From: an uncultured Acidobacteriota bacterium
GTDB taxonomy: Bacteria > Acidobacteriota > Thermoanaerobaculia > Multivoradales > UBA5704
DNA length: 64,000 nucleotides
NCBI GenBank assembly: GCA_963770895.1
Contig: CAVYRF010000002.1
Coordinates: 2,176,001-2,240,000, forward strand
Direction: 5' to 3'
The notes beneath the pieces are model-generated. The model made no database searches. It saw only the letters and a list, made by a program, of their open reading frames with translations, and was not told the DNA's origin. The number at the start of each line of letters is the position of its first letter. Position 1 is the stretch's first letter. A program made the translations under genes and the position numbers. Shown here one piece after another: positions 35,745 to 57,771 of the stretch.

Positions 35745-36052
35745 GCCGACCTCCTTATGAGAAGGGGCGCAACAGTACGGCCCTTGGGTACCTTGATGCA
35801 TCGATTATACGCAATCGCATACCTCAAGACCACGACCTGTTATTTCTCCGGTAGAAGACGATGATGCGCATAGGTGGGGGGAGTTTGGCGGCGCGGTTGC
35901 TGCGCTGGACACTGTGCGAAGCTCGTGCTTTACTAGCTTTAAGTGAAAGTCAATAGTTCCCTCGCCGCGACCTTAACTTTAAAATACATTCATTGTTGAG
36001 CTGTCTCTGCAGAGCCGGGCGTCCCCCGGCGCGTAGAGGAAAGGTTTCCGCC

Positions 36053-37153
36053 ATGGATTTCGGCCTGATGTTTTTCGCCAGCGACAAGATCGGCCAGAGC
36101 GGCAAAGGCGCCGAGCGCTATGCGCTGCTGCTTGCGGCGTCGCGCTTTGCCGACCAGCACGGCTTCAGCGCCATCTGGACCCCCGAGCGTCACTTCCATT
36201 CCTTCGGCGGCATCTTCCCGAATCCGGCGGTCACCAGCGCCGCGCTCGCGGTGACGACCGAGCGGCTGGAGATCCGGGCGGGTAGCCTGATCTCGCCGCT
36301 GCACGATCCGATCCGCATCGCCGAGGAGTGGGCGGTGGTCGACAACCTGTCCAACGGCCGCGTCGCGATCTCCTTCGGCTCGGGATGGAACATTAACGAT
36401 TTCATTTTCTTTCCCGAGCGCTATAACACTCGCCAAGCGGTGATGCACGAGCAGATTCGCGAAGTCAAGGAAATCTGGAAAACGGGTGTGGCGAAGCGCA
36501 CCAACAGCCGCGGCGAGCCGGTCGAAATTGCGATCTATCCGCGGCCGATCCAGGCCGAGCTGCCGGTGTGGATCACCTCCTCCGGCAACGTCGACACCTT
36601 CGTCAGCGCCGGCCGCGCCGGCGCCAATCTGCTCACCCATCTGATCGGCCAGGACCTGCCGACCCTGGCGACCAAAATCGCCAGCTACCGCGCGGCGCGG
36701 CGCGAGGCGGGGCACGACCCGGCCGCCGGGCGCGTGGCCCTCATGCTCCACACCTTCCTCGGCAACGACATCGACGCCGTCAAGGAGACGGTGCGCAAGC
36801 CGTTCACCGCCTACATCGCCTCCGCCATCCGGCTGGAAGAAAAGGCCGCGAGCGCCGGCGGCGTGATGAGCGGCGGCCGCCTCATGGACCCCAGCGGCGT
36901 GCCGAGCGAAGTCTTCGACGAGCTGCTCGAGCTGACCTTCGAGCGCTACTTCCACACCGCGGCCCTCATGGGCACGCCGGCCTCCTGCCGCCAGTTCGTC
37001 GGCGAGGTGGCGCGGGCGGGCGTCGACGAAGCGGCCTGCCTCATCGACTTCCTCGGCGACGAAGACGCCATTCTCGGCGGCCTCGACCTGCTCGATCGTC
37101 TGCGCCAGGACTGCGCCGCCGACAAAACTCTTTCGCAAGGGGGAAAAACGTGA
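36053..37153 (+). CDS. LLM-class flavin-dependent monooxygenase (MupA/Atu3671-like, natural-product associated)
   Basis: MDFGLMFF, WTPERHFHSFGGIFPNP, HDPIRIAEEWAVVDNLSNGRV, GANLLTHL and ACLIDF motifs. Confidence 0.9.
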   Translation: MDFGLMFFASDKIGQSGKGAERYALLLAASRFADQHGFSAIWTPERHFHSFGGIFPNPAVTSAALAVTTERLEIRAGSLISPLHDPIRIAEEWAVVDNLSNGRVAISFGSGWNINDFIFFPERYNTRQAVMHEQIREVKEIWKTGVAKRTNSRGEPVEIAIYPRPIQAELPVWITSSGNVDTFVSAGRAGANLLTHLIGQDLPTLATKIASYRAARREAGHDPAAGRVALMLHTFLGNDIDAVKETVRKPFTAYIASAIRLEEKAASAGGVMSGGRLMDPSGVPSEVFDELLELTFERYFHTAALMGTPASCRQFVGEVARAGVDEAACLIDFLGDEDAILGGLDLLDRLRQDCAADKTLSQGGKT

Positions 37154-37155
37154 CC

Positions 37156-38445
37156 ATGACTGCCGATTACAGCTCCGCCGTCCCGGCGTTTCCGGGCAGC
37201 TTCGTCTTCTCGCTGCCCTGCACCGGCTCCACCCTCCTGCGCCTGATCCTCGATACCCACCCCGAGATCTACTGCCCGGACGAGGTGCGGCTGGGCAACG
37301 TCGTGCGCGCGCTCCACCACACGACCGAAGGTCTTTACGAGGTCGTCGCCGCGCCGGCGGGCGGCCCCGCTGCCGCCGGCGGCGCCCCCGAAAGCGCCGC
37401 CGTCGTCGAGACCCGGCGCATCGTCTGCGACCTCATGGGCCAGGCCGCGGCGCGCAAGGGCAAGAGCCGCTGGTGCGACAAGTCGCCCAGCAATCTCGGC
37501 AGCATGAGATTGATCGCAAGGGTTTTGCCCGCGGCCCGCAACATCCTCCTGCACCGCCACTGCCTCGACATGACCCAGTCGTGCCTCAAGCGCTCGACCT
37601 TCGGCTTCTACCTCGCCATCGTCGAGGACTACGTGCGCAAGAATCACCGCGATTTCCTCACCGCCACCATCCTTGCCTGGGTCGAGCAGACCGAGGAGCT
37701 CCTGCGCTTCGAAGCCGATCACGCGGGCCTCTGCCACCGCCTGCGCTACGAAGACCTGGTCGGCTCCCCCGACGCCGCCGTGGAGAGCCTCTTTGGCTTT
37801 CTGCAGGTGCCCTTCACGCCTGCCATCCTCGCCGGCGTCTTCGCCTCCCCGCGCTTCCAGCGCCAGGGCTGCGGCGACGCCGCCGTGCGCTACTCGCAAG
37901 CCATCGTCGACACGAGCGTCGGCAGCGGCGCCGATCTCGCCCCGGCCCTCGGCCGCGTCCCGCGCGATCTCTTCCAGCGCATGAACGACCTCCTCGTCCG
38001 CCTCGGCTACCTCGCGGTCGACCGCACCGCCGAAGGCTTCGACACCCATCTCGCCCGCCGCCAGCCTCCGGCCCAGGCCGGTGACACCGCGCCCGCCGCC
38101 GCCGCCGCTCCCTCCCTCTCCCTCGCCGACGTCTTCACCGGCCTCACCGAGCGCCTCCGTCTCGACCCCACCTTCGCCCCCAAGGTCGGCCAATCCTTTC
38201 AATTCGACCTCACCGGCCCCGGCGGCGGCGTCTGGGTCCTCGACCTCACCGCCGCGCCCGGCGCCGTCCACACCGGCCCCGCCCCCTCCGACGTCCAGCT
38301 GACCCTCCCGGCCGCCGACTTCGCCGCCGTCCTGACCGGCGCCCTCAACCCCATCACCGCCATCAAGCAAGGCCGCCTCCAACTCGCAGGCAACGTCGAC
38401 GAGCGCGCCCTGCAACAGCTCTTCGCCGGCCTCTTCAGCGGCTGA
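37156..38445 (+). CDS. Sulfotransferase-family protein with a C-terminal SCP2 lipid-binding domain
   Basis: PCTGSTLLRLILDTHP, WCDKSP and LRYEDLV...FL motifs. The C-terminus FQFDLTGPGGGVWVLD...GALNPITAIKQGRLQLAG is SCP2-like. An alternative GTG at 37150 overlaps the LLM stop. Confidence 0.85.
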   Translation: MTADYSSAVPAFPGSFVFSLPCTGSTLLRLILDTHPEIYCPDEVRLGNVVRALHHTTEGLYEVVAAPAGGPAAAGGAPESAAVVETRRIVCDLMGQAAARKGKSRWCDKSPSNLGSMRLIARVLPAARNILLHRHCLDMTQSCLKRSTFGFYLAIVEDYVRKNHRDFLTATILAWVEQTEELLRFEADHAGLCHRLRYEDLVGSPDAAVESLFGFLQVPFTPAILAGVFASPRFQRQGCGDAAVRYSQAIVDTSVGSGADLAPALGRVPRDLFQRMNDLLVRLGYLAVDRTAEGFDTHLARRQPPAQAGDTAPAAAAAPSLSLADVFTGLTERLRLDPTFAPKVGQSFQFDLTGPGGGVWVLDLTAAPGAVHTGPAPSDVQLTLPAADFAAVLTGALNPITAIKQGRLQLAGNVDERALQQLFAGLFSG

Positions 38446-38520: not shown

Positions 38521-40887
38521 ATGAGCGCTACGCCGGCGCCGCGCTCTGTGCGCCCTCGTTCTTCGCGGACAGCGCGCGGCAGGCCGCTCGCCGAGCTGCT
38601 GGCGACCTGCCTGGAAGCGCCGCGCCGGATCGACCGGCGGGTGGTGGCGCGGCTGGTGCGCGAGCTGGCGCCGGGCGGCGCCGATCCGCGGCTCGCCCTG
38701 GTGCTGCTGGCTGCATTGGTCTATGCCCGGCCCGGTCTGCTGCGCGCCGGCGACACCGCGCTGCTCGACCGCCTGCAGGCGCTGTGGCACGAAGCCCTGA
38801 CAACCGACCTCGCGGCACCGCTGGGCGCCGCCGTGCGGGCGGTGGCACAGACCGCCCTCGGCCCGGCGCTGGCCGCCCGCCTGCTGTTGCCCGCGCCTGG
38901 CCCGGGTGCCTCCGGCGCCCCTGGTGGCGCGGCGGCGCCGCTCGCCGGCGAGCGGCTGGACTGGCTGCGCTTCTTGGTGACGCGGTATCCCGACTGGATC
39001 GACCTCGATGCGCTCATCCGCTGCTGCGGCGTCGCCGCCGGCATGGTCGACAGCGAACGGGTGCTGGGAGAGCTGGTCGAACCGCTTCTCCACCATGCGC
39101 CCGAATCCTTCACGCCGGCGCGCCTGGACGCGCTGCGCGCGGCGTTCGGTGCGACCGAGCGCTGGCGCTACTTCGCGGCCTTTCTTGCCACGGAGCCGGC
39201 GGCGCCGTCCGCCACCCGGCACCGCGCCGCGGCGGCGCTTGCCGGGCAGCTGCCACGGTGCGGCGAGGCGAGGCGGCTGCGCGGCGGGCCGATGCGCTTG
39301 GCGGTGGTGCAGAACGTCGTCTTCGGCCAGGGCGACGAGCTGATCCGCCTGGCGCCGCTGCTGCAGGCGTTGCTCGACGGCCTGCCGCGGCTCGCCATCA
39401 CCCTGCTGACGCCGCGCCCCTACCTGTACGACCACCCGCGCGTGCGGGTGCTGCCGATCGGCGACTCGGCCGGCGCCGCGGCGCTGGACGGCGACTTCGA
39501 CGGGCTGATCGAGCTCTGGGAGCCCGAGGTCGCCGAGCTGAACGTCGTACCGGCGCTGCACGAGCGGGCCCGGCTGCTGGCGGCGCGACGGCCGCTCCGC
39601 CTGGAGATCGCCTGCAACCTCGGCGTCAATCACTTCGCCTTCCAGAAGGTCGCCCTCGACGGCGTCGACATCGCCGCCCGCCTGGGGCTGGACCGCCGGA
39701 CGGCACGGCAGGTCTACGATCCGGTCCGCCGCTTGCTCGTCGAGCTGGGCCTGCCTTTGCGCCGCGAACACGCGCCGCCGGCGCGCTCGCTGCTGGTCGG
39801 CATTCCGTCGCCCGAGGCGGAGGCGGCCTGGCGCGCCTTGGCTCCGGCGGGCCGTCCGGTGGCGCTCGTCAGCCCATTCGGCGGCACCCGAGAGATCAAG
39901 GGATACGCCACCGACAGACTGGACATCCTGGCGGGTGAGCTGCGCCAGCTGGTGCGTCAGGGCTATCGCGTGGTGGTGCTGCCCAACGGCCAGCCCTGGG
40001 TGACGCCCGACGTCATGGCCGCCCTGGTGACGCGGCTGCCGGTCGCCGAGCGCCGCCACCTGGCGGTGGCTCCCGATCCGGCAGGCCCGCTTCGGGCACC
40101 GTTACCCGGCGTGGACGGCGAGCGGCCCGACCTGCGGCGGCCGGCCGACCGCGTCATGCGTTGGTTCAAGTACTTCGCCGCGCGTGCCGACCTGGTGGTG
40201 AGCGTCGAGGGCTGGCTGTCCCACCTCGGCTGGCAGCTCGGTCGGCCGCTGCGAGTGGTGCTGGCGGCGCAGTCGTACGACGAGGCGTGGTACCCGCCGG
40301 CGCGCGACCGCGCGCAGCGGATCGTGGACCGGATTGCAAGCTGCCCGCCGCAGCGCGGCCGAGGGCGGGCGCCCGATTTGCTTGGCGACGGCGACCGGCC
40401 GCCGCTTCCCGGCCGCGACCGCAAGCAGCTGCTGGTCGCCGCCCTCGCCGGGCTGGGCGCCGCGGGGGGAGCCGCGGTGGAGCCGCTGCTGCTGCGGGCC
40501 GCCGGCAGCGCCGACGAGGATGTGCGAGCCGCGGCGCTCGCCGCCCTGGGCAGGCTGCCGCAGCACGAGGGCATCCGCCGGACGCTGCTGGCGGCGCTGG
40601 GCGCAGCGGACCCCGAGGTGCGGGGAGCGGCGGCGGAAGGGCTCCTGGCAAGCGGGTTCGACTGCGCGCCGGAGCTTGGCGAACGCTATCGTGACGTGCT
40701 CACCGCGCACGTGGCGATCGCCGCGCGTGCCTGGGTGAGCGTCGACGATCTCGGCGCCCCGGCCATCCCGGCGCTGGCGGTCGCCGCCGCCGGGCGGGAC
40801 GACTTCATGCGCCGTGAGGCGCGCTGGCTCCTGGGCAGGCTGCTGCGGCGGCAGGTCAGGCCGTCGCGGCAGGCGGGCGGCCGGTGA
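38521..40887 (+). CDS. GT9 (heptosyltransferase-like) glycosyltransferase with helical N-terminus and C-terminal HEAT repeats
   Basis: GQGDELIRLAPLLQAL, LVSPFGG and ADLVVSVEGWLSHLGWQLGRP resemble GT9 motifs. DEDVRAAALAALG / DPEVRGAAAEGL / DDFMRREARWLLG are HEAT-like. Confidence 0.6.
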   Translation: MSATPAPRSVRPRSSRTARGRPLAELLATCLEAPRRIDRRVVARLVRELAPGGADPRLALVLLAALVYARPGLLRAGDTALLDRLQALWHEALTTDLAAPLGAAVRAVAQTALGPALAARLLLPAPGPGASGAPGGAAAPLAGERLDWLRFLVTRYPDWIDLDALIRCCGVAAGMVDSERVLGELVEPLLHHAPESFTPARLDALRAAFGATERWRYFAAFLATEPAAPSATRHRAAAALAGQLPRCGEARRLRGGPMRLAVVQNVVFGQGDELIRLAPLLQALLDGLPRLAITLLTPRPYLYDHPRVRVLPIGDSAGAAALDGDFDGLIELWEPEVAELNVVPALHERARLLAARRPLRLEIACNLGVNHFAFQKVALDGVDIAARLGLDRRTARQVYDPVRRLLVELGLPLRREHAPPARSLLVGIPSPEAEAAWRALAPAGRPVALVSPFGGTREIKGYATDRLDILAGELRQLVRQGYRVVVLPNGQPWVTPDVMAALVTRLPVAERRHLAVAPDPAGPLRAPLPGVDGERPDLRRPADRVMRWFKYFAARADLVVSVEGWLSHLGWQLGRPLRVVLAAQSYDEAWYPPARDRAQRIVDRIASCPPQRGRGRAPDLLGDGDRPPLPGRDRKQLLVAALAGLGAAGGAAVEPLLLRAAGSADEDVRAAALAALGRLPQHEGIRRTLLAALGAADPEVRGAAAEGLLASGFDCAPELGERYRDVLTAHVAIAARAWVSVDDLGAPAIPALAVAAAGRDDFMRREARWLLGRLLRRQVRPSRQAGGR

Positions 40888-42013
40888 GAAAGCGGCTGGC
40901 GGCCGGCGCACCCCCGGCCTGCGCCTCGGCCAGCTGGCGCTTGGTGCGGAACTCCAGCTCGCGGCCGCCGCCGCACGCCTCGGCGCGCCCGTAGCATGCG
41001 GCGCTCTCGGCGAAGCGCCCCAGGCGGAAGTTGCACAGCCCGGCGGCGTCCCAGGCGAGCACGCCGAAGATCCGCTCGTCGTGCGCCAGCTGCCCGGCGC
41101 AGAGCGCCGCCGGATCGACGGCGGTGAGGCGGGACAGCAGCGGCAGCGCCGCCTCCGGGCAGCCGCCGGCGAGCAGGTGGCGCGCCCGCAACCAGACCAG
41201 CGTCCACTGGTCGGGAAACGCCGCCGCGGCTTCGGCCAGCAGGCCGTCCACCGGCTCGCCCAGCTCCATCAGCACCTGCAGCATGCCGACGTAGACCAGA
41301 CTGTCGGTCGCCGCCGGCGCCCGGGCGGCGCGCACCACGGCGAGGCCGCTCTGGTAGGCGGTACGCGCCGCCTCCAGATCGCCGATGCCATGCAGCGTGC
41401 TGCCGAGGTGCCACCAGGCATAGACGTGCTCGGGCTCGGCGCGCAGCCGCGCCTCGAGCAGCGGCCGGTTGCGCCGGTGCTTGGCCGCCATGTCGCCGTC
41501 GTAGCCCAGGTGGTCGATCGCCAGGTCGCTCTCGCCGATGGTGCCGCCGCCCTGGCGCAGCAGCTCGCCGAGCGCCGGCAGGTGGCTCTCGTGGATGACG
41601 CCGCGGAAGCGCAGGCGCGGGTCGTTGCGGAACAGACGGTGCTCGCGGTAGCGGGTGAAGCCGCGCGCCGGCCGGAAGCGCACCGTGCAGGCCAGCAGGC
41701 GAGGATCGGCGAGCTGCTCGGCGAGGCGGGAGCGGCCGGCCTCGCACACCCGCTCGTCGGCATCGATGTAGAGGACCCACCTGCCGCGCACCGCGTCCAG
41801 CGCTGCGTTGCGTGCCGCGGCAAAATCCTGCCGCCACGGGAAGTCGACGACGCGGGCGCCATGGCGATGGGCGATCTCGCGGCTGCGGTCGACGGAGCCG
41901 GTGTCGGCGATCACCACCTCATCGGCGACGCCATGGAGCGACTCCAGGCAGCCGTCCAGGAAGCGCTCCTCGTCGCGCACGATCATCGCGGCGCTGAGCA
42001 GCAGCGAGCTCAC
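40856..42013 (-). CDS. GT2 glycosyltransferase with TPR region (SunS/ThuS-like architecture)
   Basis: AMIVRDEE, DTGSVD, DFAAARNAAL, IDADE, IHE, HLGY and KHRRN motifs, then TPR-like helices. GTG start at 42013 inferred. Confidence 0.88.
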   Translation of the reverse strand: MSSLLLSAAMIVRDEERFLDGCLESLHGVADEVVIADTGSVDRSREIAHRHGARVVDFPWRQDFAAARNAALDAVRGRWVLYIDADERVCEAGRSRLAEQLADPRLLACTVRFRPARGFTRYREHRLFRNDPRLRFRGVIHESHLPALGELLRQGGGTIGESDLAIDHLGYDGDMAAKHRRNRPLLEARLRAEPEHVYAWWHLGSTLHGIGDLEAARTAYQSGLAVVRAARAPAATDSLVYVGMLQVLMELGEPVDGLLAEAAAAFPDQWTLVWLRARHLLAGGCPEAALPLLSRLTAVDPAALCAGQLAHDERIFGVLAWDAAGLCNFRLGRFAESAACYGRAEACGGGRELEFRTKRQLAEAQAGGAPAASRFLTGRPPAATA

Positions 42014-42041
42014 CGGCGTTTCGGGGGCAGCGTGCCTGCCA

Positions 42042-42518
42042 CTAGTACGGCACGACGTAGACGACGATCTGGAAGACCGCGCTGTCACCGCCCAGCAGGT
42101 TGGCGATGCTGGCCTGCACCGTGCCGCCGCTGCCCACCGGCGGCGTCACCAGCGACCATGCCGGATCGCCGCTCAGCTTGGACGCCGAGACAAAGGTGGT
42201 CCCGGCCGGCAGGGGATCGACGAGCGAGACCGCCGGCGCCAAGCTGCCGGTGCAGTTCTGCACCGTGATGGTGTAGGTGAGGTTGTTGCCGGCGGTCACC
42301 TCGGCGGCGGAGACGGTCTTCTGGACGTCCACCAGCGGGCCGATGTTGGCGGCGCAGAGGTTCGATCCCTGGCCGAGGGCCTGCTCGGCGAGCAGGCCGC
42401 CGAGCGTGAAGGAGGCGACGAGCGGCGTCGCCCAGGCCCCTGCCAGCATGCGCAGGATGAACTGCCGCCGATCGGGGTCGACGTGCGGGAGGATCTGGGT
42501 CAGCTCTTCGGGCGCCAT
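42042..42518 (-). CDS. Twin-arginine-leader protein B with SNLC motif and C-terminally incomplete DUF11 domain
   Basis: MAP...PDRRQF leader; DVQKTVS..VTAGNNLTYTITVQN..VDPLPAGTTFVSAS..IANL..GDSAVFQIVV then stop. Confidence 0.8.
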   Translation of the reverse strand: MAPEELTQILPHVDPDRRQFILRMLAGAWATPLVASFTLGGLLAEQALGQGSNLCAANIGPLVDVQKTVSAAEVTAGNNLTYTITVQNCTGSLAPAVSLVDPLPAGTTFVSASKLSGDPAWSLVTPPVGSGGTVQASIANLLGGDSAVFQIVVYVVPY

Positions 42519-42916
42519 GGGCGTCTGCCTCCAGAGAGTCGAGTGGCGTGCGGCGGGCGGCGCAGGTACGCCAGCGCCGTCGCGGCCAGCAGCAGGCAGG
42601 AGATGACGAGCCCCGCCGGCGACAGCGCCGGCACCTGGGCGATCGGACCGCGATCGACCTGGGTGGTCGCGGTCGCCGTGCGGTGCACGGTGACGGTCGC
42701 CTGCGCCTGGTTGTTGCCGGTCTGCGGGTCGCTCTCCGAGGCGGTGACGCCCGCCGCGGCATCGATCAGGTAGTCGAGCGTCACCGTGTTGGTGATCTCG
42801 ACCGCGGCCCTGGCGCTGGGTGCGCCCAGGGTCCACAGCACCGCCAGGCAGAGCGCTGCCGCCGAGCGCGGCAGCAGGCGGCGAAGCGGCAAACCGGCGC
42901 CTTGCGGGTCCGCCAT
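42500..42916 (-). CDS. Small secreted IPTL-CTERM protein carrying the terminal DUF11 strands
   Basis: Signal peptide ending ARA; ITNTVT...SESDPQTGNNQAQATVTV; VPALSPAGLVISCLLLAATALAYLRR sorting signal. The ATG overlaps the upstream stop (TGATG). Confidence 0.78.
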   Translation of the reverse strand: MADPQGAGLPLRRLLPRSAAALCLAVLWTLGAPSARAAVEITNTVTLDYLIDAAAGVTASESDPQTGNNQAQATVTVHRTATATTQVDRGPIAQVPALSPAGLVISCLLLAATALAYLRRPPHATRLSGGRRPWRPKS

Positions 42917-43410
42917 CAGAGCACCGTCGCCTTGATCGCGAAGGTCGCGCTGGCGCCCTTCGCCAGGCTGTCGAAGACGCCCGCCACGGTACCGGCGAAA
43001 CCCACGGGAGGCGTGGACAGGTCGGTGACGGGGGGCCCGGTGAGCTGCGTGGCGGAAACGAAGGCGGCGCCCACGGGCACCTTCTGGTCGAAATTCACGT
43101 TGGTGGCCGTGCAGGGTCCGCAGTTGGTCACCGTCAGAGTGTAGGTGATGGTGTCGCCCGGCGACGCGGTCTGCGGCGACGCCGCCACTCCCACCGCGAC
43201 GTCGGCCATGGCCGGATTGCCGCAGATAGCGCCGGTGTTGGCGCACAGGTTGGATGCCTGCGCCCGCGCCGGTTCGACCAGCAGCCCGTCGAGCGAGAAC
43301 GAGGCGACGATCGGCGCCGCGTAGGCGGCACCCAGGAGCAGCCTGGAGAGGAACTGACGGCGGTCCGGAGCGAGCCCATCGAACCGTTGCGGTTTTGCGT
43401 CTGGCGCCAT
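42916..43410 (-). CDS. Twin-arginine-leader protein A with SNLC motif and C-terminally incomplete DUF11 domain
   Basis: MAP...PDRRQF leader; ADVAV..SPQTASPGDTITYTLTVTNCGP..ATNV..VPVGAAFVSAT..SLAKGASATFAIKATVL then stop. Confidence 0.8.
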   Translation of the reverse strand: MAPDAKPQRFDGLAPDRRQFLSRLLLGAAYAAPIVASFSLDGLLVEPARAQASNLCANTGAICGNPAMADVAVGVAASPQTASPGDTITYTLTVTNCGPCTATNVNFDQKVPVGAAFVSATQLTGPPVTDLSTPPVGFAGTVAGVFDSLAKGASATFAIKATVL

Positions 43411-43482
43411 GGATCGATCCTTTATTTCATGATCTGCGTGTCGCGAAAGGTCCAGAAATCCCTTGTTTTCTTCGCTTCCGCA

Positions 43483-43531
43483 GTGCCTTTGGCACAGTGC
43501 GCCGAACTTTGTGCATGGAACTTGTGCATGG
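43483..43531. promoter_or_regulatory. Possible operator motifs in the divergent intergenic region
   Basis: Inverted repeat GTGCC-TTT-GGCAC (43483-43495) and direct repeat TTGTGCATGG x2 (43509, 43522) in an AT-richer spacer. Confidence 0.3.
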
Positions 43532-43561
43532 TAAATATGCGGGCAATGGGGTGTCAAGCTT

Positions 43562-44305
43562 TTGCCGTACCTTAGAGCGGGCAGCTGGGATGACGCCATC
43601 TGGCGCTCGGTGGCGGACGATTATCCGGCGGTGCCTGCCCGCTTCGCGGCCGGCGACGTGGTGCTCGACCTGGGCGCGCACATCGGCGCCTTCGCCGCTC
43701 TCGCCGCCGCCCGCGGCGCACGCGTGGTGGCCTACGAAGCCAGCTGGCACAACCTGGCGCTGGCGCGTCTCAACACCGCCTCGCTGGCAGGGGTTGAAGT
43801 GCGGTGGGGCGCGGTCTGGCGCTCCGACCTGCCGCCGGCGCCCCGCTGGTACACGCCGGCGCCCAACGCCGCCAACACCGGCGGCGGCTCGGTGCTCTTC
43901 GCCGGTGCCATGGCGGTGAGCGCCGATGCCGGCGTCGACCCGTGGGGCGCCGGCACTGGCCGAGATGCCGAAGTTGAGGTGGCGCCGCGGGCGCACGCGG
44001 TGCCGGCGGTGCCGCTCGACGACATCCTGTGCGAGCTCGGCGCGGTGCGCCTGCTCAAGCTCGACGTCGAAGGTTCCGAGGTGCCGATCCTGGCCACCTC
44101 GCGCCAGCTCGCCAGGGTGGTGCAGATCACCGGCGAGGCACACGACCTGAGCGTCGGGCAGCAGGGCCGTCTGGCGCCCGACGCGCAGGTCGCGGGCGTA
44201 TCCTGCGATGCGAGCGGCCTTGCCGCAGTCCTCGGCGGCGCCGGCTTCACGGTGGCGATGACCGGTGCCGGGCCGCTGCGGCTGTTCAATGCCTGGCGGG
44301 CCTGA
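43562..44305 (+). CDS. FkbM-family methyltransferase
   Basis: VLDLGAHIG, VVAYEA, NTGG and LLKLDVEGSE motifs. Confidence 0.88.
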   Translation: MPYLRAGSWDDAIWRSVADDYPAVPARFAAGDVVLDLGAHIGAFAALAAARGARVVAYEASWHNLALARLNTASLAGVEVRWGAVWRSDLPPAPRWYTPAPNAANTGGGSVLFAGAMAVSADAGVDPWGAGTGRDAEVEVAPRAHAVPAVPLDDILCELGAVRLLKLDVEGSEVPILATSRQLARVVQITGEAHDLSVGQQGRLAPDAQVAGVSCDASGLAAVLGGAGFTVAMTGAGPLRLFNAWRA

Positions 44306-44343
44306 CCGGCGCGCCGCCCGCCACCCGCTGCCCGCCACCCGCA

Positions 44344-45261
44344 ATGAGCACGCCCGTCATCTGCCTCTACAACCGCTTCTTCGAGCGCTGGCCGGTCGCC
44401 GCCGAGATCGGCGCCGAGATCGCTTTCCGGTTTGGCGCCGAGACTCTTGCCGGCGCCGACGCCGTGGTCTTCCATCTGCCGACGCTGGGTGTGCTTCCCG
44501 AGCGCCCCAGAGCTGCGGCGGGCGCCGGCGCCCCGCCGCAGCTCTGGGTGGCCTGGTGTCTGGAAAGCGCCGTCGTCTGTCCGCGGCTCGCCGACCCGCG
44601 GGCGATGGGGCGTTTCGATCTGACCATGACCTACCAACGATCGAGCGATGTCTGGTGGCCTTACTTCGGGCCCGGCACGGTGCCGCACCTGCTGGCGCCG
44701 CCGGGCGTCAAGGGTCCTGGCGCGCCGGTCGTGCACCTGCAATCCAACCCCTTCGATCGCAGCGGGCGCAACCGCTTCGCCGCCGGGCTGATGCGGCGCA
44801 TCAAGGTGGACTCCTACGGCACCGTCCTGCGCAACCGGACCGAGGTCGTGGCGCCCAGCTATGCGGGTCGCACCGCGGTCATGGCCCGCTACAAGTTCAC
44901 CCTGGCGCTCGAGAACTCCATCGCGCACGACTATGTGACCGACAAGTTCTTCGACGCGTTGGCGGCAGGCTCGGTGCCCGTCTACCGCGGCACCCGCGAG
45001 GTGGCCGATCTCGCGCCCGCGCCCGGCTGCTACATCGATGCGGCCGACTTCGCCTCGCCAAGCGAGCTCGCCGCGCACCTCGACCGCCTAGACCGCGACG
45101 ACGCCGCCTATGCCGCCCATCACGCCTGGCGCCATGGAGGCTTCTCGGAAGCTTTTCTCCAGCACCTCCGCCGCCTCGAACGGCCGCCCTTTGCCCGGCT
45201 GGCCGAGCACGTCCAGGACTGGATCGCGGCCGGCCGCCCGCCGCGGCAACGATCGGACTAG
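44344..45261 (+). CDS. GT10 alpha-1,3/4-fucosyltransferase-like protein
   Basis: ADAVVFH, FDLTMTYQRSSDV, VDSYG and YKFTLALENSIAHDYVTDKFFDALAAGSVPVYRG (the FucT signature). Confidence 0.9.
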   Translation: MSTPVICLYNRFFERWPVAAEIGAEIAFRFGAETLAGADAVVFHLPTLGVLPERPRAAAGAGAPPQLWVAWCLESAVVCPRLADPRAMGRFDLTMTYQRSSDVWWPYFGPGTVPHLLAPPGVKGPGAPVVHLQSNPFDRSGRNRFAAGLMRRIKVDSYGTVLRNRTEVVAPSYAGRTAVMARYKFTLALENSIAHDYVTDKFFDALAAGSVPVYRGTREVADLAPAPGCYIDAADFASPSELAAHLDRLDRDDAAYAAHHAWRHGGFSEAFLQHLRRLERPPFARLAEHVQDWIAAGRPPRQRSD

Positions 45262-45336
45262 CCTTCACCGCCTGCCACACTCCCACCGCTGGCGAGGCCG
45301 CCGCCCGTCCCGCGCGGAGTGCGGTGCAGACCGCTG

Positions 45337-45696
45337 TCAAGCCTGAGGCGCGATGCCAGAGCCGCCGGCGCCGTCGGCGGATGGCGGCGCCGCCTCGTCG
45401 ACTCCTTCGATCAATCCTTCCGCGAGGAACTGCGCCAGACATTCCGCCACCTCGTCGCGCGGCGGCTCGGGAAGATGGAAGCTCCGCGCCAGGAAGGACG
45501 GCAGGGCGGCAGCGGGCGTTGCGCCATCGCACAGCGTGAGCAAAAGAGCCGCGGTCCGGTTCAAGTAATGCACGCGGTCCCGCTCCGGGTGATAGGCGAC
45601 GAACCCGTCGGTCACCTCGCTGAGCTCGACACCTGCGGCCAGCCGCAGCCGCATCTGCCAATCGACCGCGGCGCCCCGCTCCACCGTCTCTCCCAT
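45337..45696 (-). CDS. Stand-alone PqqD-family / RiPP recognition element (RRE) protein
   Basis: EVTDGFVAYHPERDRVHYLNRTAALLLTLCDG...EVAECLAQFLAEGLI, the beta3-alpha3 PqqD pattern. Confidence 0.88.
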   Translation of the reverse strand: MGETVERGAAVDWQMRLRLAAGVELSEVTDGFVAYHPERDRVHYLNRTAALLLTLCDGATPAAALPSFLARSFHLPEPPRDEVAECLAQFLAEGLIEGVDEAAPPSADGAGGSGIAPQA

Positions 45697-45871
45697 GCTC
45701 CCTAGTATCGGCGCCACACCGAGGCCCGTCAATCGCCGTCCATGGCCCACCGTCGGGCGCGCCGGCGCGACCTGCCGTCGCCCCGGTTTTCCCGCCTTGC
45801 CAGTGTATACTTGAAGAGGAAGGAAGCCCCAGCTAGCTTCCGGCCATGACCAACGCCTTTCAGAGTCAGAA

Positions 45872-46675
45872 ATGAGTCGACTCACTCTCCGATGGTTCAA
45901 TCTCACTCAGCGCGATGGGCAGGACCTATGTCTGAAGATCCCAATTTGCAACGTTTATGCTCCGATAATCGATCGGGCTTTTCCTGAAGTGACGCACATC
46001 GAGTGGAGGCAGGGCACGCAAGGCACCTGCTTCACCTATCTCAAGCATATAACCTCCGAAGACTTTGACTCCCTCAACGACTTCCTCCAGCTTCTCGGCG
46101 AGATTCGCTGTCTAACGCTGACCGATCACCTCGCTCCGCACTTTCAAGCCGAACTGGACGAAGCATATGCGCTAGACTTCAATTTTCAGACAGATCTCTT
46201 CCCTCTTGCCTACACGGAAATGGGCAGTCTCGAACACATTGCGAAGGAGCAACAGAATCGCGCCGCCATAGCTCAACTCAACATCCGGCTTGCCGAAGTC
46301 ATCCGCCGCCACCCCTCACTTTCCCGCGTTGAGTTCGTTGCGCCAATGCCGCCGCGCCCCTCAAAGAATTTTCATCTCCCTGTTGAAATGGCTAAGGGCA
46401 TAGGTGCGATCTTGGGGTGCCCAGTCGACCTGAGTCTCACCAAGGCGGAGCATCCGAAACTTCGAACGCTTCCCATTAGGCAGAAGGTCTCCGCGCTTGA
46501 GGAAGCCTTCTCGATTGGAGGCTCGGTTGAAGGTAAAGCCATTCTAATCGTTGACGACCTTTACCAGTCTGGCGCAAGTCTTTGGTCGCTCGCCAGGTTT
46601 TTGAAGTCCCGCGGAGCCCGACTAGTCTATGGACTGGCATGCGTCAAGTCGTGGAGTGATACCGACAACCAATGA
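45872..46675 (+). CDS. Phosphoribosyltransferase-fold (ComF-like) protein, putative defence toxin
   Basis: PRPP-binding motif ILIVDDLYQSGASL. Visibly lower GC than the flanks. Confidence 0.8.
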   Translation: MSRLTLRWFNLTQRDGQDLCLKIPICNVYAPIIDRAFPEVTHIEWRQGTQGTCFTYLKHITSEDFDSLNDFLQLLGEIRCLTLTDHLAPHFQAELDEAYALDFNFQTDLFPLAYTEMGSLEHIAKEQQNRAAIAQLNIRLAEVIRRHPSLSRVEFVAPMPPRPSKNFHLPVEMAKGIGAILGCPVDLSLTKAEHPKLRTLPIRQKVSALEEAFSIGGSVEGKAILIVDDLYQSGASLWSLARFLKSRGARLVYGLACVKSWSDTDNQ

Positions 46676-47646
46676 TGCAGCAAACTCAGTCCATTGAGTT
46701 CGTAGCTTTCTGTCTTCAGGCTGCGCCTGGAGTAGGCGCATCCACGCTTCGCATGGTTCTGAAACGCCTCGCTCAAGAACGGCTCGCACCAGAAGCCCTC
46801 TTCCAACTCGACGACCACGACTTGCTGTTGCGCTTCGGGCTCAAGCCCTCCGCTGTCGCTGCGCTCCGAGAGCCTTGCGACGAAACGCTGGAAACCTGGC
46901 AACGCCTCAAAGCGGAATCTGTGAAGATCCTTGTTTGGGGCCAGGCTGCCTACCCAACGCGGCTCTATACCCTCCTTCGCGACACTGCCCCTCCCTTGCT
47001 TTTTCTCGTCGGCGGGCTAGACAGTTTCGGACGTCCAGCAGTGGGCTTCTGCGGCTCCAGGAGGGCGTCTGAAAAGGGGTTGCGAGTAGCGCGCGATTGT
47101 GCGCATCTGCTGGCGAAACAACAAATCAATGTCGTCAGTGGTTACGCTCATGGCGTTGATCTCGCCGCGCATCGCGCAGCTTTGGAGGCGGGAGGTACTA
47201 CGACCGTCGTGTTGCCCGAGGGTATTCTTCACTTCCGGGTCAAGAGCGAAATTCGCGACTTGCTGAGCGCAGGAGACTTTTCGCGCATCGCCGTTGTGTC
47301 CGAGTTCCCTCCTGGCTTGCCGTGGCGGGCTCACAATGCAATGGCACGCAATCGTACGATCTGTGGCCTTTCACACGCGTTGGTCGTAATAGAATCAGGT
47401 CCGGATGGAGGCACATTCGAAGCAGGCAAAGCCGCACTTAAACTCGGTGAGCCTCTGTTCTGTATCGAATATGCCGAGACACCTCCAGAAGCGGCAGGTA
47501 ATCCGTACTTCTTGAAACATGGAGCCTTCAGTCTGAGGCGCGCGCCGAATGGCGAGCCTAACCTCTCCAGGCTCATGTCTGTCGTACGTGAGGGCGGCAG
47601 GAACTTTGGACAACCGCACCAGCAGGAGCTACTCCTGCACGAGTAA
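46672..47646 (+). CDS. DprA/Smf-family protein, putative antitoxin partner
   Basis: YPTRL, GFCGSR, VVSGYAHGVD, VVSEF, RNRTICGLS and ESGPDGGT motifs. ATGA overlap with the PRTase gene. Confidence 0.9.
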   Translation: MMQQTQSIEFVAFCLQAAPGVGASTLRMVLKRLAQERLAPEALFQLDDHDLLLRFGLKPSAVAALREPCDETLETWQRLKAESVKILVWGQAAYPTRLYTLLRDTAPPLLFLVGGLDSFGRPAVGFCGSRRASEKGLRVARDCAHLLAKQQINVVSGYAHGVDLAAHRAALEAGGTTTVVLPEGILHFRVKSEIRDLLSAGDFSRIAVVSEFPPGLPWRAHNAMARNRTICGLSHALVVIESGPDGGTFEAGKAALKLGEPLFCIEYAETPPEAAGNPYFLKHGAFSLRRAPNGEPNLSRLMSVVREGGRNFGQPHQQELLLHE

Positions 47647-48298: not shown

Positions 48299-49726
48299 TC
48301 AGCCGTCGGCGGCTTCGGCGGTTCCGGCTGCGGTGGCGTTGGCGGCGGGGTCGGGGCGCTCGATGCGGAGGGTGGCGGCTTTTTGGTGGAGGTAGGTGCG
48401 CTGGATGCCGAGGAGGCGGGCGGCGGCGGAGAAGTTCCAGTTGGTGCGGCGGAGGACGGCTTCGAGGTATTCGCGCTCGCAGGCGGTCTTGAAGTCGCGG
48501 AGGGGGAGAACGGGGCGGTTTTCGACCAGGCGGACCAGGCCGGTTTCGGGGGCGACGGCGGTGTCGAGCAGGCTGATGGGGAGCTGGTCGACGGTCAGGG
48601 GGTCGGTGCCGAAGACGGCGAGGCGCTCGCAGAGGTTGCGCAGCTCGCGGACGTTGCCGGGCCAGGGGTAGCGTTTGAGGGCGGCGGGGACGGCAGGGTC
48701 GACGGTCTGGCGGCGAACGCGATGGAGGCGGGCGAAGTGATCCAGGAAGTGGGCGACCAGGAGGGGGATGTCCTGGGTGCGGTCGCGCAGCGGCGGGACC
48801 TCGATGGGGAGGTGGGCGAGGCGGAAGTAGAGGTCCTGGCGGAAGCGGCCGGCGGCGATGGCGCGGTCGAGGTCGCGGTGGGTGGCGGCGATGACGCGGA
48901 CGTCGACCTGGCGGTCGCGAGTCTCGCCGATGCGGCGGATGTGGCCGTCTTCGAGGACGCGGAGGAGGCGGGCCTGGAGGCCCAGGTCCATGTCGCCGAT
49001 CTCGTCGAGGAAGAGGGTGCCGCGGTCGGCTTCTTCGAACAGGCCGGGTTTGGCGGTGCGGGCGTCGGTGAAGGCGCCGCGGGCGTGGCCGAAGAGCTCG
49101 TCCTCGACGAGGTGGGCGGGGATGGCGGCGCAGTTGATCTTGACGAAGGGGCCGTCGCGGCGGGAGCTCTGGCGGTGGAGGGTGCCGGCGACCAGCTCTT
49201 TGCCGGTGCCCGTGGCGCCACTGATGAGGACGCGGCCGTCGGTGGCGGCGACGCGCGCGATGACCTGGCGGAGGCGGTCGGCGGCGGGGGAGGCGCCCAG
49301 GATGTCGGGTTCCTGGAGGAGCTTCGACTCCAGGACCGAGACCTTGCGGCGCAGGGCGGCGTTCTCCAGGGTGTTGGCGATGGCGCGCAGCAGTCTTTCG
49401 CGGCTGAACGGTTTCTCGATGACGTCGTGGACGCCGAGCTTGAGGGCTTCGACGGTCTCGCTGATCGAGGCTTCTCCCGAGATGATCACGGTCGGCGGCA
49501 GGCGCTGGCGCGGGGCCAGCTGGCGCAGCAGGTCGACGCCGCTCATCCGGCGCAGGCGCACGTCGAGGAGCAACAGGTCGGGGTGCGGCTCGGCGCTGCT
49601 TTCGAGCGCCGCCAGGGCTTCTTCGGCGCAGGTCATGGCGCGTACGGCGAAGCCTTCTTCGCGCAGCTGGGCAAAGAGGCTGGCGCGGATCTTGTCGTCG
49701 TCTTCGACCAGCAGGATGGCGGTCAC
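48299..49726 (-). CDS. Sigma54-dependent response regulator (NtrC/NtrX family; REC-AAA+-HTH)
   Basis: ILLVEDD, LLDV, GATGTGKE, NCAAIP, ELFGHARGAFTDA, LFLDEIGD and WPGNVREL motifs, plus a C-terminal HTH. GTG start at 49726. Confidence 0.95.
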   Translation of the reverse strand: MTAILLVEDDDKIRASLFAQLREEGFAVRAMTCAEEALAALESSAEPHPDLLLLDVRLRRMSGVDLLRQLAPRQRLPPTVIISGEASISETVEALKLGVHDVIEKPFSRERLLRAIANTLENAALRRKVSVLESKLLQEPDILGASPAADRLRQVIARVAATDGRVLISGATGTGKELVAGTLHRQSSRRDGPFVKINCAAIPAHLVEDELFGHARGAFTDARTAKPGLFEEADRGTLFLDEIGDMDLGLQARLLRVLEDGHIRRIGETRDRQVDVRVIAATHRDLDRAIAAGRFRQDLYFRLAHLPIEVPPLRDRTQDIPLLVAHFLDHFARLHRVRRQTVDPAVPAALKRYPWPGNVRELRNLCERLAVFGTDPLTVDQLPISLLDTAVAPETGLVRLVENRPVLPLRDFKTACEREYLEAVLRRTNWNFSAAARLLGIQRTYLHQKAATLRIERPDPAANATAAGTAEAADG

Positions 49727-50967: not shown

Positions 50968-51704
50968 GGCGGCGCACCTCCGGCCGGCGCCGGCGCCGGA
51001 GCGGCCCCGGCGGCGACGTCGGCGTGCCAGTCGAAGCTGACCACGCTTCGCCGCTTGATCGAGGTGGCGACCAGCATGTCGAGCACACCGCCGACCGGGC
51101 CGGTCGTCACGGTCTCCTCGCTCCGCGTGTCCGCCGCCGGCGCGCCGGCGACCGAACGCGACACCCAGTCCTGGGTCTGCGCCTGCTCACCGCGCGAGAA
51201 AGGGCTCACGGCGAGGTGGGCGACGATGTGCCAGGGTCCCGGCGCGAACGCTCGCCCGGCCGCCAGCACGGGGAGCCGCAGCGCCTGCCACCAGGCGATC
51301 AGGCGGTCGAGCGTCGGCAGGCTGGCCTGCATCCGGCGCCCGTCGCTGCCCACGGCGGTGGCCAGGAAGACTTCGTCCCAGAGCTCGTATCGCACCTCGA
51401 CCAGGCCGCCGCCGCGCGCCTTCTTCCCCTGGGCGTCGGTGGCGGTGACCGAGAGCGCCAGGCTGGTGGTGAGCCCCGAGGTCAAGCGGGGCTTGACCTC
51501 GGAGTGGGACAGGACGTACGCCGGCAGCGCCGCGAACAGCACGCGATCGGCGCCGACCTCGAAAGCCGGCCGCGCCGCAGGCGCGGCAGCCGTGGCAGGC
51601 GCGCCGGCCGGCCCGGCCGCCGGTGGGGCGGTCTGAGGTCCCGGTGCGGCCGCCCCGCGGGCGCCCCGCGCCGCCAGCGTCAGCGCCAGCGCCGCCACGG
51701 TCAC
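50964..51704 (-). CDS. Secreted hypothetical protein (DUF4390-like position and composition)
   Basis: C-terminal part of ORF 50964..53030. GGAG RBS, GTG at 51704, signal peptide, RLTSGLTTS...VRYELWDEVF. Stop overlaps the kinase start. Confidence 0.6.
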   Translation of the reverse strand: MTVAALALTLAARGARGAAAPGPQTAPPAAGPAGAPATAAAPAARPAFEVGADRVLFAALPAYVLSHSEVKPRLTSGLTTSLALSVTATDAQGKKARGGGLVEVRYELWDEVFLATAVGSDGRRMQASLPTLDRLIAWWQALRLPVLAAGRAFAPGPWHIVAHLAVSPFSRGEQAQTQDWVSRSVAGAPAADTRSEETVTTGPVGGVLDMLVATSIKRRSVVSFDWHADVAAGAAPAPAPAGGAPP

Positions 51705-55167: not shown

Positions 55168-55532
55168 GGGTCCGGTTCAGGCCCGGCCCGGCTGTCCGGC
55201 CGCCGGGTTGGGGAGCGGCAGGGGCAGGGCACTCATGCGGTGAGGGGCGGTCGAGATCGGCAAGGTCTGCGCAGTGCCGGCGCATCCCGGCCCGCCGGGT
55301 GCGCGAAGCGCCAGGGAGCCTATCACCACGTGTGCCGCCTTGCCGCCGTCGCATGGCCGGGAGCCTGCCGTTGCAGAAAAGCATCGGAGCCCATGAAAAC
55401 GGCGCGATGGCCTCATCCCTGGAGGGGGGCGGGGGCTGAGGGCGGAACGCCCTCAGCCCAAACACGACCGACCGCTGTCTCGGCACATCTCCATTGCGGG
55501 GAGGATGCGCTGCGAGGGATCAGACCTCAGCC

Positions 55533-57743: not shown

Positions 57744-57771
57744 CGCCGCCCCGGCCTCGGTCGATCGGTCC

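Follow-up and report, generated by a model that had tools for sequence, protein, structure and literature searches.

We analysed a 64,000-nucleotide stretch of DNA from an uncultured Acidobacteriota bacterium (contig CAVYRF010000002.1, positions 2,176,001 to 2,240,000), referred to below as the window. Between positions 38521 and 45696 lies a compact cassette that encodes a stand-alone PqqD-family protein, two small paralogous proteins with a common leader, a small protein with an IPTL-CTERM-like tail, and a set of enzymes that includes several related to glycosyltransferases (GTs). The G+C content of the window is approximately 75%, and genes were called by third-position G+C; all open reading frames (ORFs) of at least 70 amino acids between 33.4 and 51.5 kb were scanned with Pfam and NCBIfam. 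An earlier, sequence-only reading of this DNA had listed the genes of the cassette, and all of them are present. It had interpreted them as a system in which a RiPP recognition element (RRE; RiPP, a peptide made by the ribosome and modified after translation) guides the cytoplasmic glycosylation of proteins that are exported through twin-arginine translocation (Tat) and anchored at the cell surface. It had also noted that pqq, lasso, radical SAM, YcaO, peptidase and ABC-exporter genes are missing. Among the scanned ORFs none of these domains is found, so this statement holds for 33.4–51.5 kb; S9 and S10 peptidases are present farther off, at 57–62.5 kb.

The center of the cassette is a run of genes on the reverse strand: PqqD (45337–45696), A (42916–43410), B (42500–42916), C (42042–42518) and an enzyme that we termed GT2-TPR (40856–42088). 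The protein A, of 164 amino acids, consists of a twin-arginine-like leader (residues 1–50), a Q-x-S-N-L-C segment and a truncated DUF11/CLIPPER β-sandwich (residues 70–164). C, of 158 amino acids, is a paralogue of A with 45% identity and the leader in common. B, of 138 amino acids, carries a signal peptide, a segment that resembles the terminal strand of DUF11 (ITNTVT..., with an invariant Asn), a linker and the IPTL-CTERM-like tail. The stop codon of A overlaps the start codon of B in the sequence TGATG, and the ATG of C lies 18 nt within B, preceded at a distance of 8 nt by a GGAGG ribosome-binding site; by this arrangement A, B and C are translationally coupled. We considered the possibility that the three genes are the remains of a single frameshifted gene, and rejected it: each has its own start codon with a ribosome-binding site or a start-stop overlap, a separate signal peptide is encoded in B, and the two- or three-gene layout recurs in other genomes. 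Two sigma-70-like promoter matches were found in the 5.6 kb scanned, where 0.2 would be expected. One lies upstream of A (43528–43557, reverse strand; TTGACA, an 18-nt spacer and TACCAT, 10 of 12 positions), in the 151-nt divergent intergenic region that A has in common with the methyltransferase gene FkbM; the other lies upstream of PqqD (45704–45732, reverse strand; 9 of 12 hexamer positions). Both are matches to the consensus only.

The β-sandwich domain is split over two genes. A and C match the Pfam family DUF11 (55 bits), and the match of A covers positions 1–84 of the 114-position model and ends at the stop codon. Both proteins are without the last ~32 residues of the DUF11 unit, which form its final two strands. 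This segment is carried by the mature N-terminus of B, which matches DUF11 positions 65–114 (E=0.0022). An AlphaFold2 (AF2) model of A contains seven strands, with pLDDT above 90 over residues 70–164 and low confidence over residues 30–60. The best Foldseek match of the model is the CLIPPER structure 9IFR (E=1.8e-3, 26% identity), and comparison of the two by VIA gives a Z of 8.5 and a root-mean-square deviation of 2.2 Å over 92 residues. The 9IFR crystal structure has nine strands, as reported in the study in which DUF11 was renamed CLIPPER (PMC12617251).

A search with a profile of full-length A returned 54,762 matches, and the best 150 listed are giant tandem DUF11 proteins of 975–7,647 amino acids. 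Swamped by these giants, the search was useless for collecting the leader family, and we reused it as a set of canonical repeats. When a hidden Markov model (HMM) of the A domain was run over the 150 proteins, it gave 705 full-model matches, 704 of which have scorable downstream sequence. The strand pattern [ILVF]xNx[AVTS]x[VILA] occurs within 30 residues after the A-like unit in 510 of these 704, compared with 714 of 5000 random windows, and in 558 of 635 cases the distance to the start of the next canonical DUF11 unit is 30–39 residues. These canonical tails have a consensus (...TITNTATVSSTTTDPNPANNSATATTTV...) that is the pattern found at the mature N-terminus of B. A tail HMM was run on 853 ORFs from the window and nine further loci; its six best matches are six B proteins (E from 6.3e-7 to 0.27), the window B ranking second with E=0.0077, and the best non-B match has E=2. 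These observations bear on one claim of the sequence-only reading, that the leader-bearing proteins are themselves anchored at the surface. A and C are instead truncated CLIPPER domains, whose missing terminal strands are found on the anchor protein B. With both the anchor and the strands on B, surface display would work differently from what had been proposed.

In canonical CLIPPER domains the Lys, the catalytic Asp and the Asn of the isopeptide bond lie on one chain. The Asn is present on the strand of all eight B proteins available. At the position of Lys-715 in 9IFR, 33 of 48 A-type bodies have Lys, and in all 33 the Asp column, equated with the catalytic Asp-748 by counting to within one residue, is Asp. 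The two bodies of the window differ in this respect: C keeps both residues, and in A they are replaced by Val75 and Gln109. Three relatives share with window A the loss of both residues (Val or Ile, with Gln).

The tail of B has a tripartite layout: VPALSPAGL, followed by LVISCLLLAATALAYL and then by RR. Hydrophobic 19-residue windows start at residues 92–101 and reach a maximal Kyte-Doolittle value of 2.04. Orthologous B proteins pass the Pfam IPTL-CTERM model PF18203 in four of five loci (L009, L011, L012 and L013; 24.2–28.1 bits against a cut-off of 20.8), and the B of L010 gives no PF18203 match. The source genome encodes 11 other IPTL-CTERM matches above the cut-off. Elsewhere, PMC8671808 describes an IPTL-CTERM on a confirmed S-layer protein of Methylomirabilis.

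The order PqqD, A, B, GT2-TPR is conserved. Besides the window, it is found at another locus of the source genome (L009) and at four loci in metagenome-assembled genomes (MAGs; L010–L013). L009 surrounds the third A-like gene of the source genome, on another contig, and reads Anp1-like GT, PqqD, A-like, B-like and GT2-TPR. To obtain the MAG loci, one genome per species was scanned for the pattern. Of the 13 matching stretches, four were confirmed, all in Acidobacteriota/Thermoanaerobaculia MAGs, and each consists of PqqD, A, a small gene for B and GT2-TPR. A metagenome scan gave 12 confirmed loci, only three of which (L020, L021 and L031) belong to the leader family; the other nine were rejected as ordinary tandem DUF11 proteins. 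L020 reads A-B-C-GT2-TPR with a convergent homologue of the HEAT-repeat protein of the window (HEAT788, below), L021 reads GT10-PqqD-A, and L031 reads A-B. In total there are six complete loci from five genomes and three fragments, consistent with them except for one fragment that is without GT2-TPR. B follows A in all eight loci with downstream flank, and PqqD lies upstream of A, adjoining or near, in all seven with upstream flank. The GT2-TPR orthologues are 56–82% identical and come directly after B in six other loci. One A per B is the rule at most loci; in the window one B serves two body paralogues, A and C. The module is rare: its leader occurs in two of 401 genomes sampled from the same phylum, one being the source genome, and once per genome in the four MAGs. 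Because the arrangement is conserved in other genomes, it is not a product of chance.

The four-gene core is tightly spaced in the six complete loci while the accessory enzymes vary. In the window these lie on both sides of the core. FkbM (43562–44305) and GT10 (44344–45261) are on the forward strand, divergent from A. FkbM is a methyltransferase of 247 amino acids (TIGR01444, 51.1 bits against a cut-off of 37.7), and GT10 is a fucosyltransferase-family protein of 305 amino acids (Pfam Glyco_transf_10, 106.7 bits; Glyco_tran_10_N, 42.8 bits). HEAT788 (38521–40887, forward strand), a HEAT-repeat protein of 788 amino acids with a Pfam HEAT_2 match at residues 639–708, is convergent with GT2-TPR. 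Next to it, a gene for a sulfotransferase with an SCP2 region (37153–38445, forward strand; Sulfotransfer_3, 95.3 bits; SCP2, 48.8 bits, both Pfam) is a possible accessory whose membership is uncertain. Elsewhere, GT10 recurs in L012, L013 and L021, beside PqqD in all three, and FkbM recurs in L010, where an orthologue with 44% identity lies directly beside A. An Anp1-like GT is found in L009, L012 and L013, GT4 enzymes in L010 (three genes), L011 and L013, and a GT32-like enzyme in L010. L009 encodes a sulfotransferase (L009:7539–8594) unrelated to that of the window. HEAT788 has an orthologue only in L020, in the same position. The sequence-only reading had linked PqqD, the leader proteins, the IPTL-CTERM protein and GT2-TPR and had suggested testing this by co-occurrence with a leader profile. 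That analysis bears out the linkage, as conserved synteny in the six complete loci, the three fragments and the leader-keeping variant described next; the core recurs, and GT10 and FkbM change from locus to locus.

The variant (L018; G009:C142, 7451–10023, reverse strand) lies in the other leader-bearing genome of the phylum sample and consists of PqqD, an HprK-related kinase-like protein, a 56-residue peptide and GT2-TPR, with a GT6 enzyme and other GT- or methyltransferase-like genes upstream. The peptide has the same leader, followed by only six residues after the AQ site, and ends in ...AQVPHGS. Neither a DUF11 body nor B is found at this locus. The leader is thus associated with PqqD and the GT, and the body with B. 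L018 may be a small-peptide relative of the system.

Conservation within the A-type proteins also points to the leader. An alignment of 48 family members shows that conservation over the first 58 residues equals or exceeds that of the domain. R17, R18, P33, V35 and F38 are invariant, and F20, A36, S37, Q51, N54 and C56 are at least 90% conserved. A leader-only profile retrieved 51 protein clusters, 47 of which encode proteins of 154–177 amino acids, in a searched length range that began at 110 amino acids. No A+B fusion is found among these leader-bearing clusters. One candidate of 230 amino acids (P0184) was rejected, its C-terminal extension being unrelated to B and its contig only 828 nt long.

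By inspection, the leader has the layout D-R-R-Q-F-L, a moderately hydrophobic stretch (maximal 19-residue Kyte-Doolittle value 1.53) and an A-x-[AG]-Q site, which is present in seven of seven leader sequences. The source genome encodes TatC (216.9 bits; G000:C2:3276701–3277333). Judging from the motif, A and C are probably Tat substrates. The predicted mature N-terminus, Q-x-S-N-L-C-x-N (residues 51–58 of window A), is invariant or nearly so in the 48 sequences, in particular S53, N54, C56 and N58, and Cys97 in an NCGP motif is invariant. Possible roles for these residues are a glycosylation site, a Cys56–Cys97 disulfide or a donor strand. The lipobox consensus does not accept Leu at position −1, and on inspection the reading of S-N-L-C as a lipobox was rejected for this reason.

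The PqqD protein, of 119 amino acids, passes the Pfam PqqD cut-off (29.4 against 23.4 bits). Its start is most likely the ATG at 45696, which is preceded by a GGGAG ribosome-binding site and coincides with the end coordinate of the sequence-only reading. The best NCBIfam match is TIGR04353, the PqqD chaperone of the HPr-rel-A system, with 29.9 bits against a cut-off of 35. Seven orthologues keep an RVHYLN strand and a TAALLLExCDG helix. The complex of PqqD with residues 1–62 of A was predicted in three runs alongside three controls. The model reaches an ipSAE of 0.39 (0.38–0.39 between runs), compared with 0.01 for the best control, and is graded as weak support. The runs share at least 83% of their contacts, with a partner pLDDT of at least 51; no contacts are reported. 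In the benchmark of this score, 116 of 157 solved complexes attained the mark, as did 2 of 215 mismatched pairs. Scores of at most 0.60 that reach the mark were found for only 18 of the 157 solved complexes, together with both passing mismatches.

Several lines of evidence suggest that the GTs of the cassette act on protein. GT2-TPR combines a GT-A domain (Glycos_transf_2, 70.3 bits, residues 32–158) with tetratricopeptide repeat (TPR) matches at residues 208–369, both by Pfam, and is the presumed priming enzyme. Its true start may lie downstream of 42088, because alignments to relatives begin at residues 24–36. By sequence its nearest solved relatives are GmaR (6.6e-23), 7msk (1.4e-14) and SunS (7msp and 7msn, ~1e-13), the alignments to SunS and 7msk extending over ~200 residues. 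GmaR O-GlcNAcylates the flagellin of Listeria, and SunS and ThuS S-glycosylate glycocin peptides; all act on polypeptides. SunS is also the best NCBIfam match (TIGR04195), with 57.6 bits over positions 61–265 of 421. The sequence-only description of GT2-TPR as SunS-like therefore stands for the best match and for the succession of GT-A and TPR domains, and fails at the family cut-off of 350 bits, far above the score obtained.

HEAT788 had been described as GT9-like. This assignment is supported by fold and not by sequence: residues 1–600 match no Pfam family at E<=1, and so neither PF01075 (GT9) nor GT41. The AF2 model (pLDDT 80, pTM 0.78) contains a helical-repeat arm, an α/β GT-B core (residues ~258–602) and a HEAT arm. 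The top nine Foldseek rows are GT9 heptosyltransferases (WaaF, WaaC and 3tov; E from 6.6e-7 to 1.5e-5), with target-normalised TM-scores of 0.51–0.57, and the next rows are SPY and bacterial homologues of OGT. The nearest Atlas clusters are also GT9 (score 0.78), which we take as a lead only. A metagenomic protein of 1139 amino acids (P0206) joins the two enzymes: its first 375 residues correspond to GT2-TPR (50% identity to the window protein over 370 residues, E=3e-95), and the remainder aligns with HEAT788. This natural fusion ties GT2-TPR and HEAT788 to one pathway. Another candidate fusion (P0204, 1097 amino acids) was examined and rejected. PqqD, GT2-TPR, GT10 and FkbM have no transmembrane-like segment. 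The GTs thus look like soluble, protein-directed enzymes, in agreement with what had been proposed: GT2-TPR is related to GmaR and SunS, and HEAT788 is GT9-like with helical-repeat arms.

Based on these observations, we suggest a mechanism for the cassette. Glycosylation, Tat export and the joining of A to B are its inferred steps. A and C would be made with an N-terminal twin-arginine-like leader (DRRQFL, a moderately hydrophobic stretch and an AxA|Q cleavage site). The PqqD-type RRE would bind the conserved leader in the cytoplasm and present the protein to the GmaR/SunS-like GT2-TPR, which would attach the first sugar, perhaps within the invariant S-N-x-C segment that comes directly after the cleavage site. 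Soluble accessory enzymes would extend and decorate the glycan. In the window these would be the GT9-like HEAT788, GT10 and FkbM; other loci would use Anp1-like, GT4 or GT32-like enzymes or sulfotransferases. The modified protein would then be exported, probably by Tat, and signal peptidase would remove the leader. B would be exported on its own and kept at the surface through its IPTL-CTERM tail, and its mature N-terminus would complete the fold of A or C and so tether the body. In bodies that have both Lys and Asp (window C, and 33 of the 48), the Asn on the B strand could be joined to the body by an intermolecular isopeptide bond, and the tether would then be covalent. For the cassette as a whole, RRE-assisted cytoplasmic glycosylation of a small CLIPPER body followed by export and tethering through strand complementation with B, possibly covalent, is the best-supported reading, and we give it about an even chance. 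A stronger form is a natural two-gene catcher and tag, in which an RRE-guided, glycosylated and Tat-exported folded body, carrying Lys and Asp, clicks covalently to a Sec-exported IPTL-CTERM peptide that carries the Asn; this we consider rather unlikely.

A number of observations weigh against the proposed mechanism. For export, the curated Tat models barely detect the leader: among the 48 members, PF10518 finds one (E=0.19), TIGR01409 three (best E=0.23) and TIGR02811 six (best E=0.04). The claim that the leader is a Tat signal is thus weakly backed, by the twin-arginine motif and by TatC in the genome, and not by these models. For recognition, the prediction of the PqqD-leader complex is only a weak pass, and part of its score may reflect likeness to solved RRE-leader complexes; in the model check suggested by the sequence-only reading, RRE-leader binding scores above the controls, with a grade of weak support. 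For anchoring, the window B scores below the TIGR04174 cut-off (17.8 against 20.5 bits) and has no Pfam match at E<=0.01. Its naming as an IPTL-CTERM protein accords with the tripartite tail and with the four orthologues that pass PF18203, and window B itself lies below both curated thresholds. For strand complementation, the tail HMM reaches E<0.01 for only two of the eight B proteins, and two others, from L020 (E=10, rank 19) and L031 (E=29, rank 45), escape it. The HMMER alignment of the A profile to 9IFR places Asn-806 opposite the last strand of A and not beyond it, and in the structural alignment (model residues 60–164 against 9IFR entry residues 18–109, numbering unchecked) the register is ambiguous. 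A covalent bond cannot be general, because 15 of the 48 bodies are without Lys, and window A is without both Lys and Asp.

Gene content adds three further points. HEAT788 is confined to window-type loci, that is, the window and L020. In favour of the linkage, GT2-TPR follows B in seven of the eight loci with downstream flank, the sole miss being L031. There, a B-like gene (~430–1182) runs without a stop codon into lower-GC sequence that resembles the Walker-B region of an SMC-type ATPase, and GT2-TPR is not in the remaining 750 nt of the 1.2-kb contig; the contig is probably chimeric or rearranged. Both loci of the source genome are near nonribosomal peptide synthetase (NRPS) genes (window 1–33474 and L009:16634–19927), so that in this organism a connection with NRPS products is conceivable. 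Taken as a whole, the sequence-only interpretation holds for the linkage of the genes and for protein-directed GTs, is weakly backed for RRE-leader binding and Tat export, has a fucosylated, O-methylated glycan and an acceptor residue that stay putative, and gives way on the anchoring of the leader proteins.

The surroundings of the cassette contain genes of several kinds. The NRPS of the window is a single giant ORF of 11,158 codons (1–33474, forward strand) that runs off the 5′ end; its last 1,157 residues contain methyltransferase, adenylation, carrier and condensation domains. The NRPS-like ORF beside the second module (L009:16634–19927, reverse strand) has 40% identity to the last module of the window NRPS over 305 residues, and a luciferase-like monooxygenase is encoded a few kb from the second module (L009:13382–14278, forward strand). 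In the window, a weak BNR/sialidase-like protein below the Pfam cut-off (34116–35804, reverse strand) and a MupA/Atu3671-type luciferase-like monooxygenase (35993–37153, forward strand; 454.7 bits) lie, together with the sulfotransferase gene, between the NRPS and the cassette. On the other side, directly beside PqqD, is a low-GC patch (45872–47646, forward strand; 57% compared with ~75% elsewhere). It encodes a phosphoribosyltransferase-like protein (PADLOC PsyrT/ShosT, 1.3e-10) and a DprA/SLOG-like protein (PsyrA/ShosA, 1.8e-49), likely a horizontally acquired defence or toxin-antitoxin pair to judge from its composition and matches. Farther along, at 48299–51186 (reverse strand), a sigma-54-dependent response regulator (receiver, AAA+ and Fis-type helix-turn-helix domains) has a histidine kinase gene directly upstream that overlaps its start, and no link of the two to the cassette was found. 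Four genes beyond these, encoding a beta-lactamase-fold protein (53329–55176, reverse strand), a DPP-IV/S9 peptidase (57331–60156, forward strand), a glutathione peroxidase (60188–60901, reverse strand) and an S10-like carboxypeptidase (60902–62515, forward strand), look like ordinary housekeeping or periplasmic genes.

The enzymes could serve another product altogether. In one alternative, the GTs, the methyltransferase and the sulfotransferase build or decorate a polysaccharide, a lipid-linked glycan or the NRPS product, the DUF11 proteins are merely adjacent, and PqqD has some other partner. GT2, GT4, GT9-like and GT10 enzymes are common in lipopolysaccharide and exopolysaccharide pathways, both loci of the source genome are 5–10 kb from NRPS genes, and the MupA-type monooxygenase at 35993–37153 is of a kind typical of secondary-metabolite clusters. 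In other genomes, however, the association with NRPS genes is not seen: L010–L013 and L018, five of five loci, have no NRPS match within ~10 kb. A Pfam scan of 50 out of 94 flank ORFs gave no flippase (Wzx), polymerase (Wzy), oligosaccharyltransferase, ABC exporter or initiating phosphoglycosyl transferase, and Wzx, Wzy, oligosaccharyltransferase and ABC exporter have no match in 33–51 kb of the window. It is also the core order and tight spacing that persist in the six complete loci of five genomes, and the accessory GTs that change. Moreover, the solved relatives nearest to GT2-TPR by sequence are GmaR and SunS-type enzymes, and the leader is found with PqqD and GT2-TPR even at a locus that has no DUF11 body. 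We regard this alternative as quite improbable.

Two other alternatives keep the leader proteins as substrates and assign them a different fate. The subunits may be glycosylated and assemble into a strand-exchanged or covalent fibre instead of a 1:1 tether, the mature N-terminus of A or C (Q-x-S-N-L-C-x-N) acting as the donor strand in the open groove of the next subunit, possibly with an Asn54–Lys isopeptide bond, and B occupying the groove of the subunit closest to the cell and so anchoring the fibre. This would give a function to S53, N54, C56 and N58, whose near-complete or complete invariance is otherwise unexplained, and would suit a window with two body paralogues for one B. By inspection only, x-N-x-[CA] is loosely like the T-N-T-A strand motif of B, and natural precedents exist in the archaeal threads (PMC11607397) and the Tat-dependent Tafi pili (PMC12337348, PMC11821415), as these reports describe them. 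The N-terminal extension, however, is only ~20 residues, compared with ~32 residues for the two missing strands, and the AF2 monomer model has low confidence over residues 30–60. The likeness to the B motif is by eye, and most loci have one A per B. A fibre is thus, in our judgement, improbable. The other alternative is a true RiPP pathway, in which the leader and a short segment after it are the substrate for a small modified peptide, and the DUF11 body would serve as a carrier or have been acquired secondarily, without a part in surface display. The leader-only peptide of G009, ending in VPHGS and encoded with PqqD, an HprK-like kinase and GT2-TPR, would fit such a pathway, as would the best family match of PqqD, a peptide chaperone of the HPr-rel-A system. 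Against it, 47 of the 51 leader clusters are full DUF11 bodies of 154–177 amino acids (short peptides being outside the searched length range), B is strictly adjacent and carries both the IPTL-CTERM tail and the missing strands of the domain, and no dedicated leader protease or ABC exporter lies in 33–51 kb of the window. A pathway of this kind seems very improbable to us.

The cassette shares parts with several known systems and differs from each in other respects. Like GT2-TPR, SunS/ThuS and GmaR have a GT-A (GT2) domain followed by a TPR-like domain, and act in the cytoplasm on ribosomal peptides or proteins. Glycocin systems, to our knowledge, have no RRE, modify short helical peptides and rely on an ABC or peptidase exporter. 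The module differs from them in its stand-alone PqqD, its signal-peptide-like leader, a substrate with a folded domain and several extending GTs. With RRE-dependent RiPP pathways it shares a PqqD-fold RRE encoded in the cluster; it differs from these in that the substrate carries a folded domain of ~95 residues and that no leader protease or ABC exporter is present in 33.4–51.5 kb. The closest family to PqqD by profile belongs to HPr-rel-A, an uncharacterised system known in silico that comprises the HprK-related kinase A (TIGR04352) and the PqqD chaperone (TIGR04353). TIGR04353 is the best match of the window PqqD. In the G009 variant, the gene between those for PqqD and the leader peptide encodes an HprK_rel_A-like kinase (45.5 bits, cut-off 200). 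Neither score reaches its cut-off, and no kinase is present in the window or in L009–L013. In the literature searched in full text, no paper names the HprK-related kinase. HEAT788, with its helical-repeat arms and GT-B core, resembles the repeat-armed cytoplasmic protein glycosyltransferases OGT and SPY and the GT9-like TibC and Aah, the latter two being autotransporter heptosyltransferases. The repeats of HEAT788 are HEAT and not TPR, and at E<=1 Pfam assigns it to neither GT9 nor GT41.

On the side of display, the canonical CLIPPER/DUF11 unit is one chain of up to nine strands with all three bond residues, usually in tandem in giant adhesins. The unit of the module, in contrast, is single and encoded by two genes, and its Asn strand belongs to an anchored peptide of its own. 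SpyTag/SpyCatcher and DogTag/DogCatcher are laboratory constructs, split from Gram-positive CnaB-type domains and an adhesin of S. pneumoniae. In these pairs, as would be the case for A-type bodies and B, Lys and the catalytic acid sit in the body and the partner residue on a separate strand, and complementation is followed by spontaneous formation of an amide bond. The module would differ as a naturally split, CnaA-like domain, in which the bond is hypothetical. In nature, according to the account in PMC11607397, archaeal threads carry glycans and make use of both donor-strand complementation and intermolecular isopeptide bonds, and Tafi pili are described as having Tat-exported subunits, strand donation and a separate anchoring subunit (PMC12337348, PMC11821415). 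In common with the module, these are β-sandwich surface subunits completed by a strand from another polypeptide. They are archaeal homopolymers of unrelated folds, however, without an RRE or a dedicated cytoplasmic GT cassette, whereas the module is bacterial, apparently heterodimeric and provided with an IPTL-CTERM anchor.

We found no description of the module, or of its combination of features, in the full-text literature covered, which did not extend to the RRE-Finder supplements. The full-text search met no paper that mentions an RRE, a glycosyltransferase and a twin-arginine signal together, and the titles or abstract openings of the glycocin/RRE and Tat/glycoprotein papers listed showed no such system. 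The RRE-Finder paper (PMC7470986) mentions RRE-glycosyltransferase fusions, in its Fig. S7, which may bear on prior sightings.

If the proposed mechanism is true, RRE recognition would extend beyond small-peptide natural products to the glycosylation of a folded surface protein, and bacterial glycosylation in the cytoplasm would be coupled to the export of a finished glycoprotein. The surface tether would be a naturally split isopeptide (CLIPPER) domain, the equivalent in nature of engineered tag/catcher tools, from which new orthogonal tag/catcher pairs might be drawn. In the stronger form, with the covalent catcher and tag, one display system would unite RiPP-style recognition, a signal peptide that doubles as a leader, and spontaneous intermolecular isopeptide ligation. 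The core comprises only four genes and is testable in E. coli with mass spectrometry. The module would also give a concrete substrate for the uncharacterised HPr-rel-A-related PqqD family and for IPTL-CTERM sorting.

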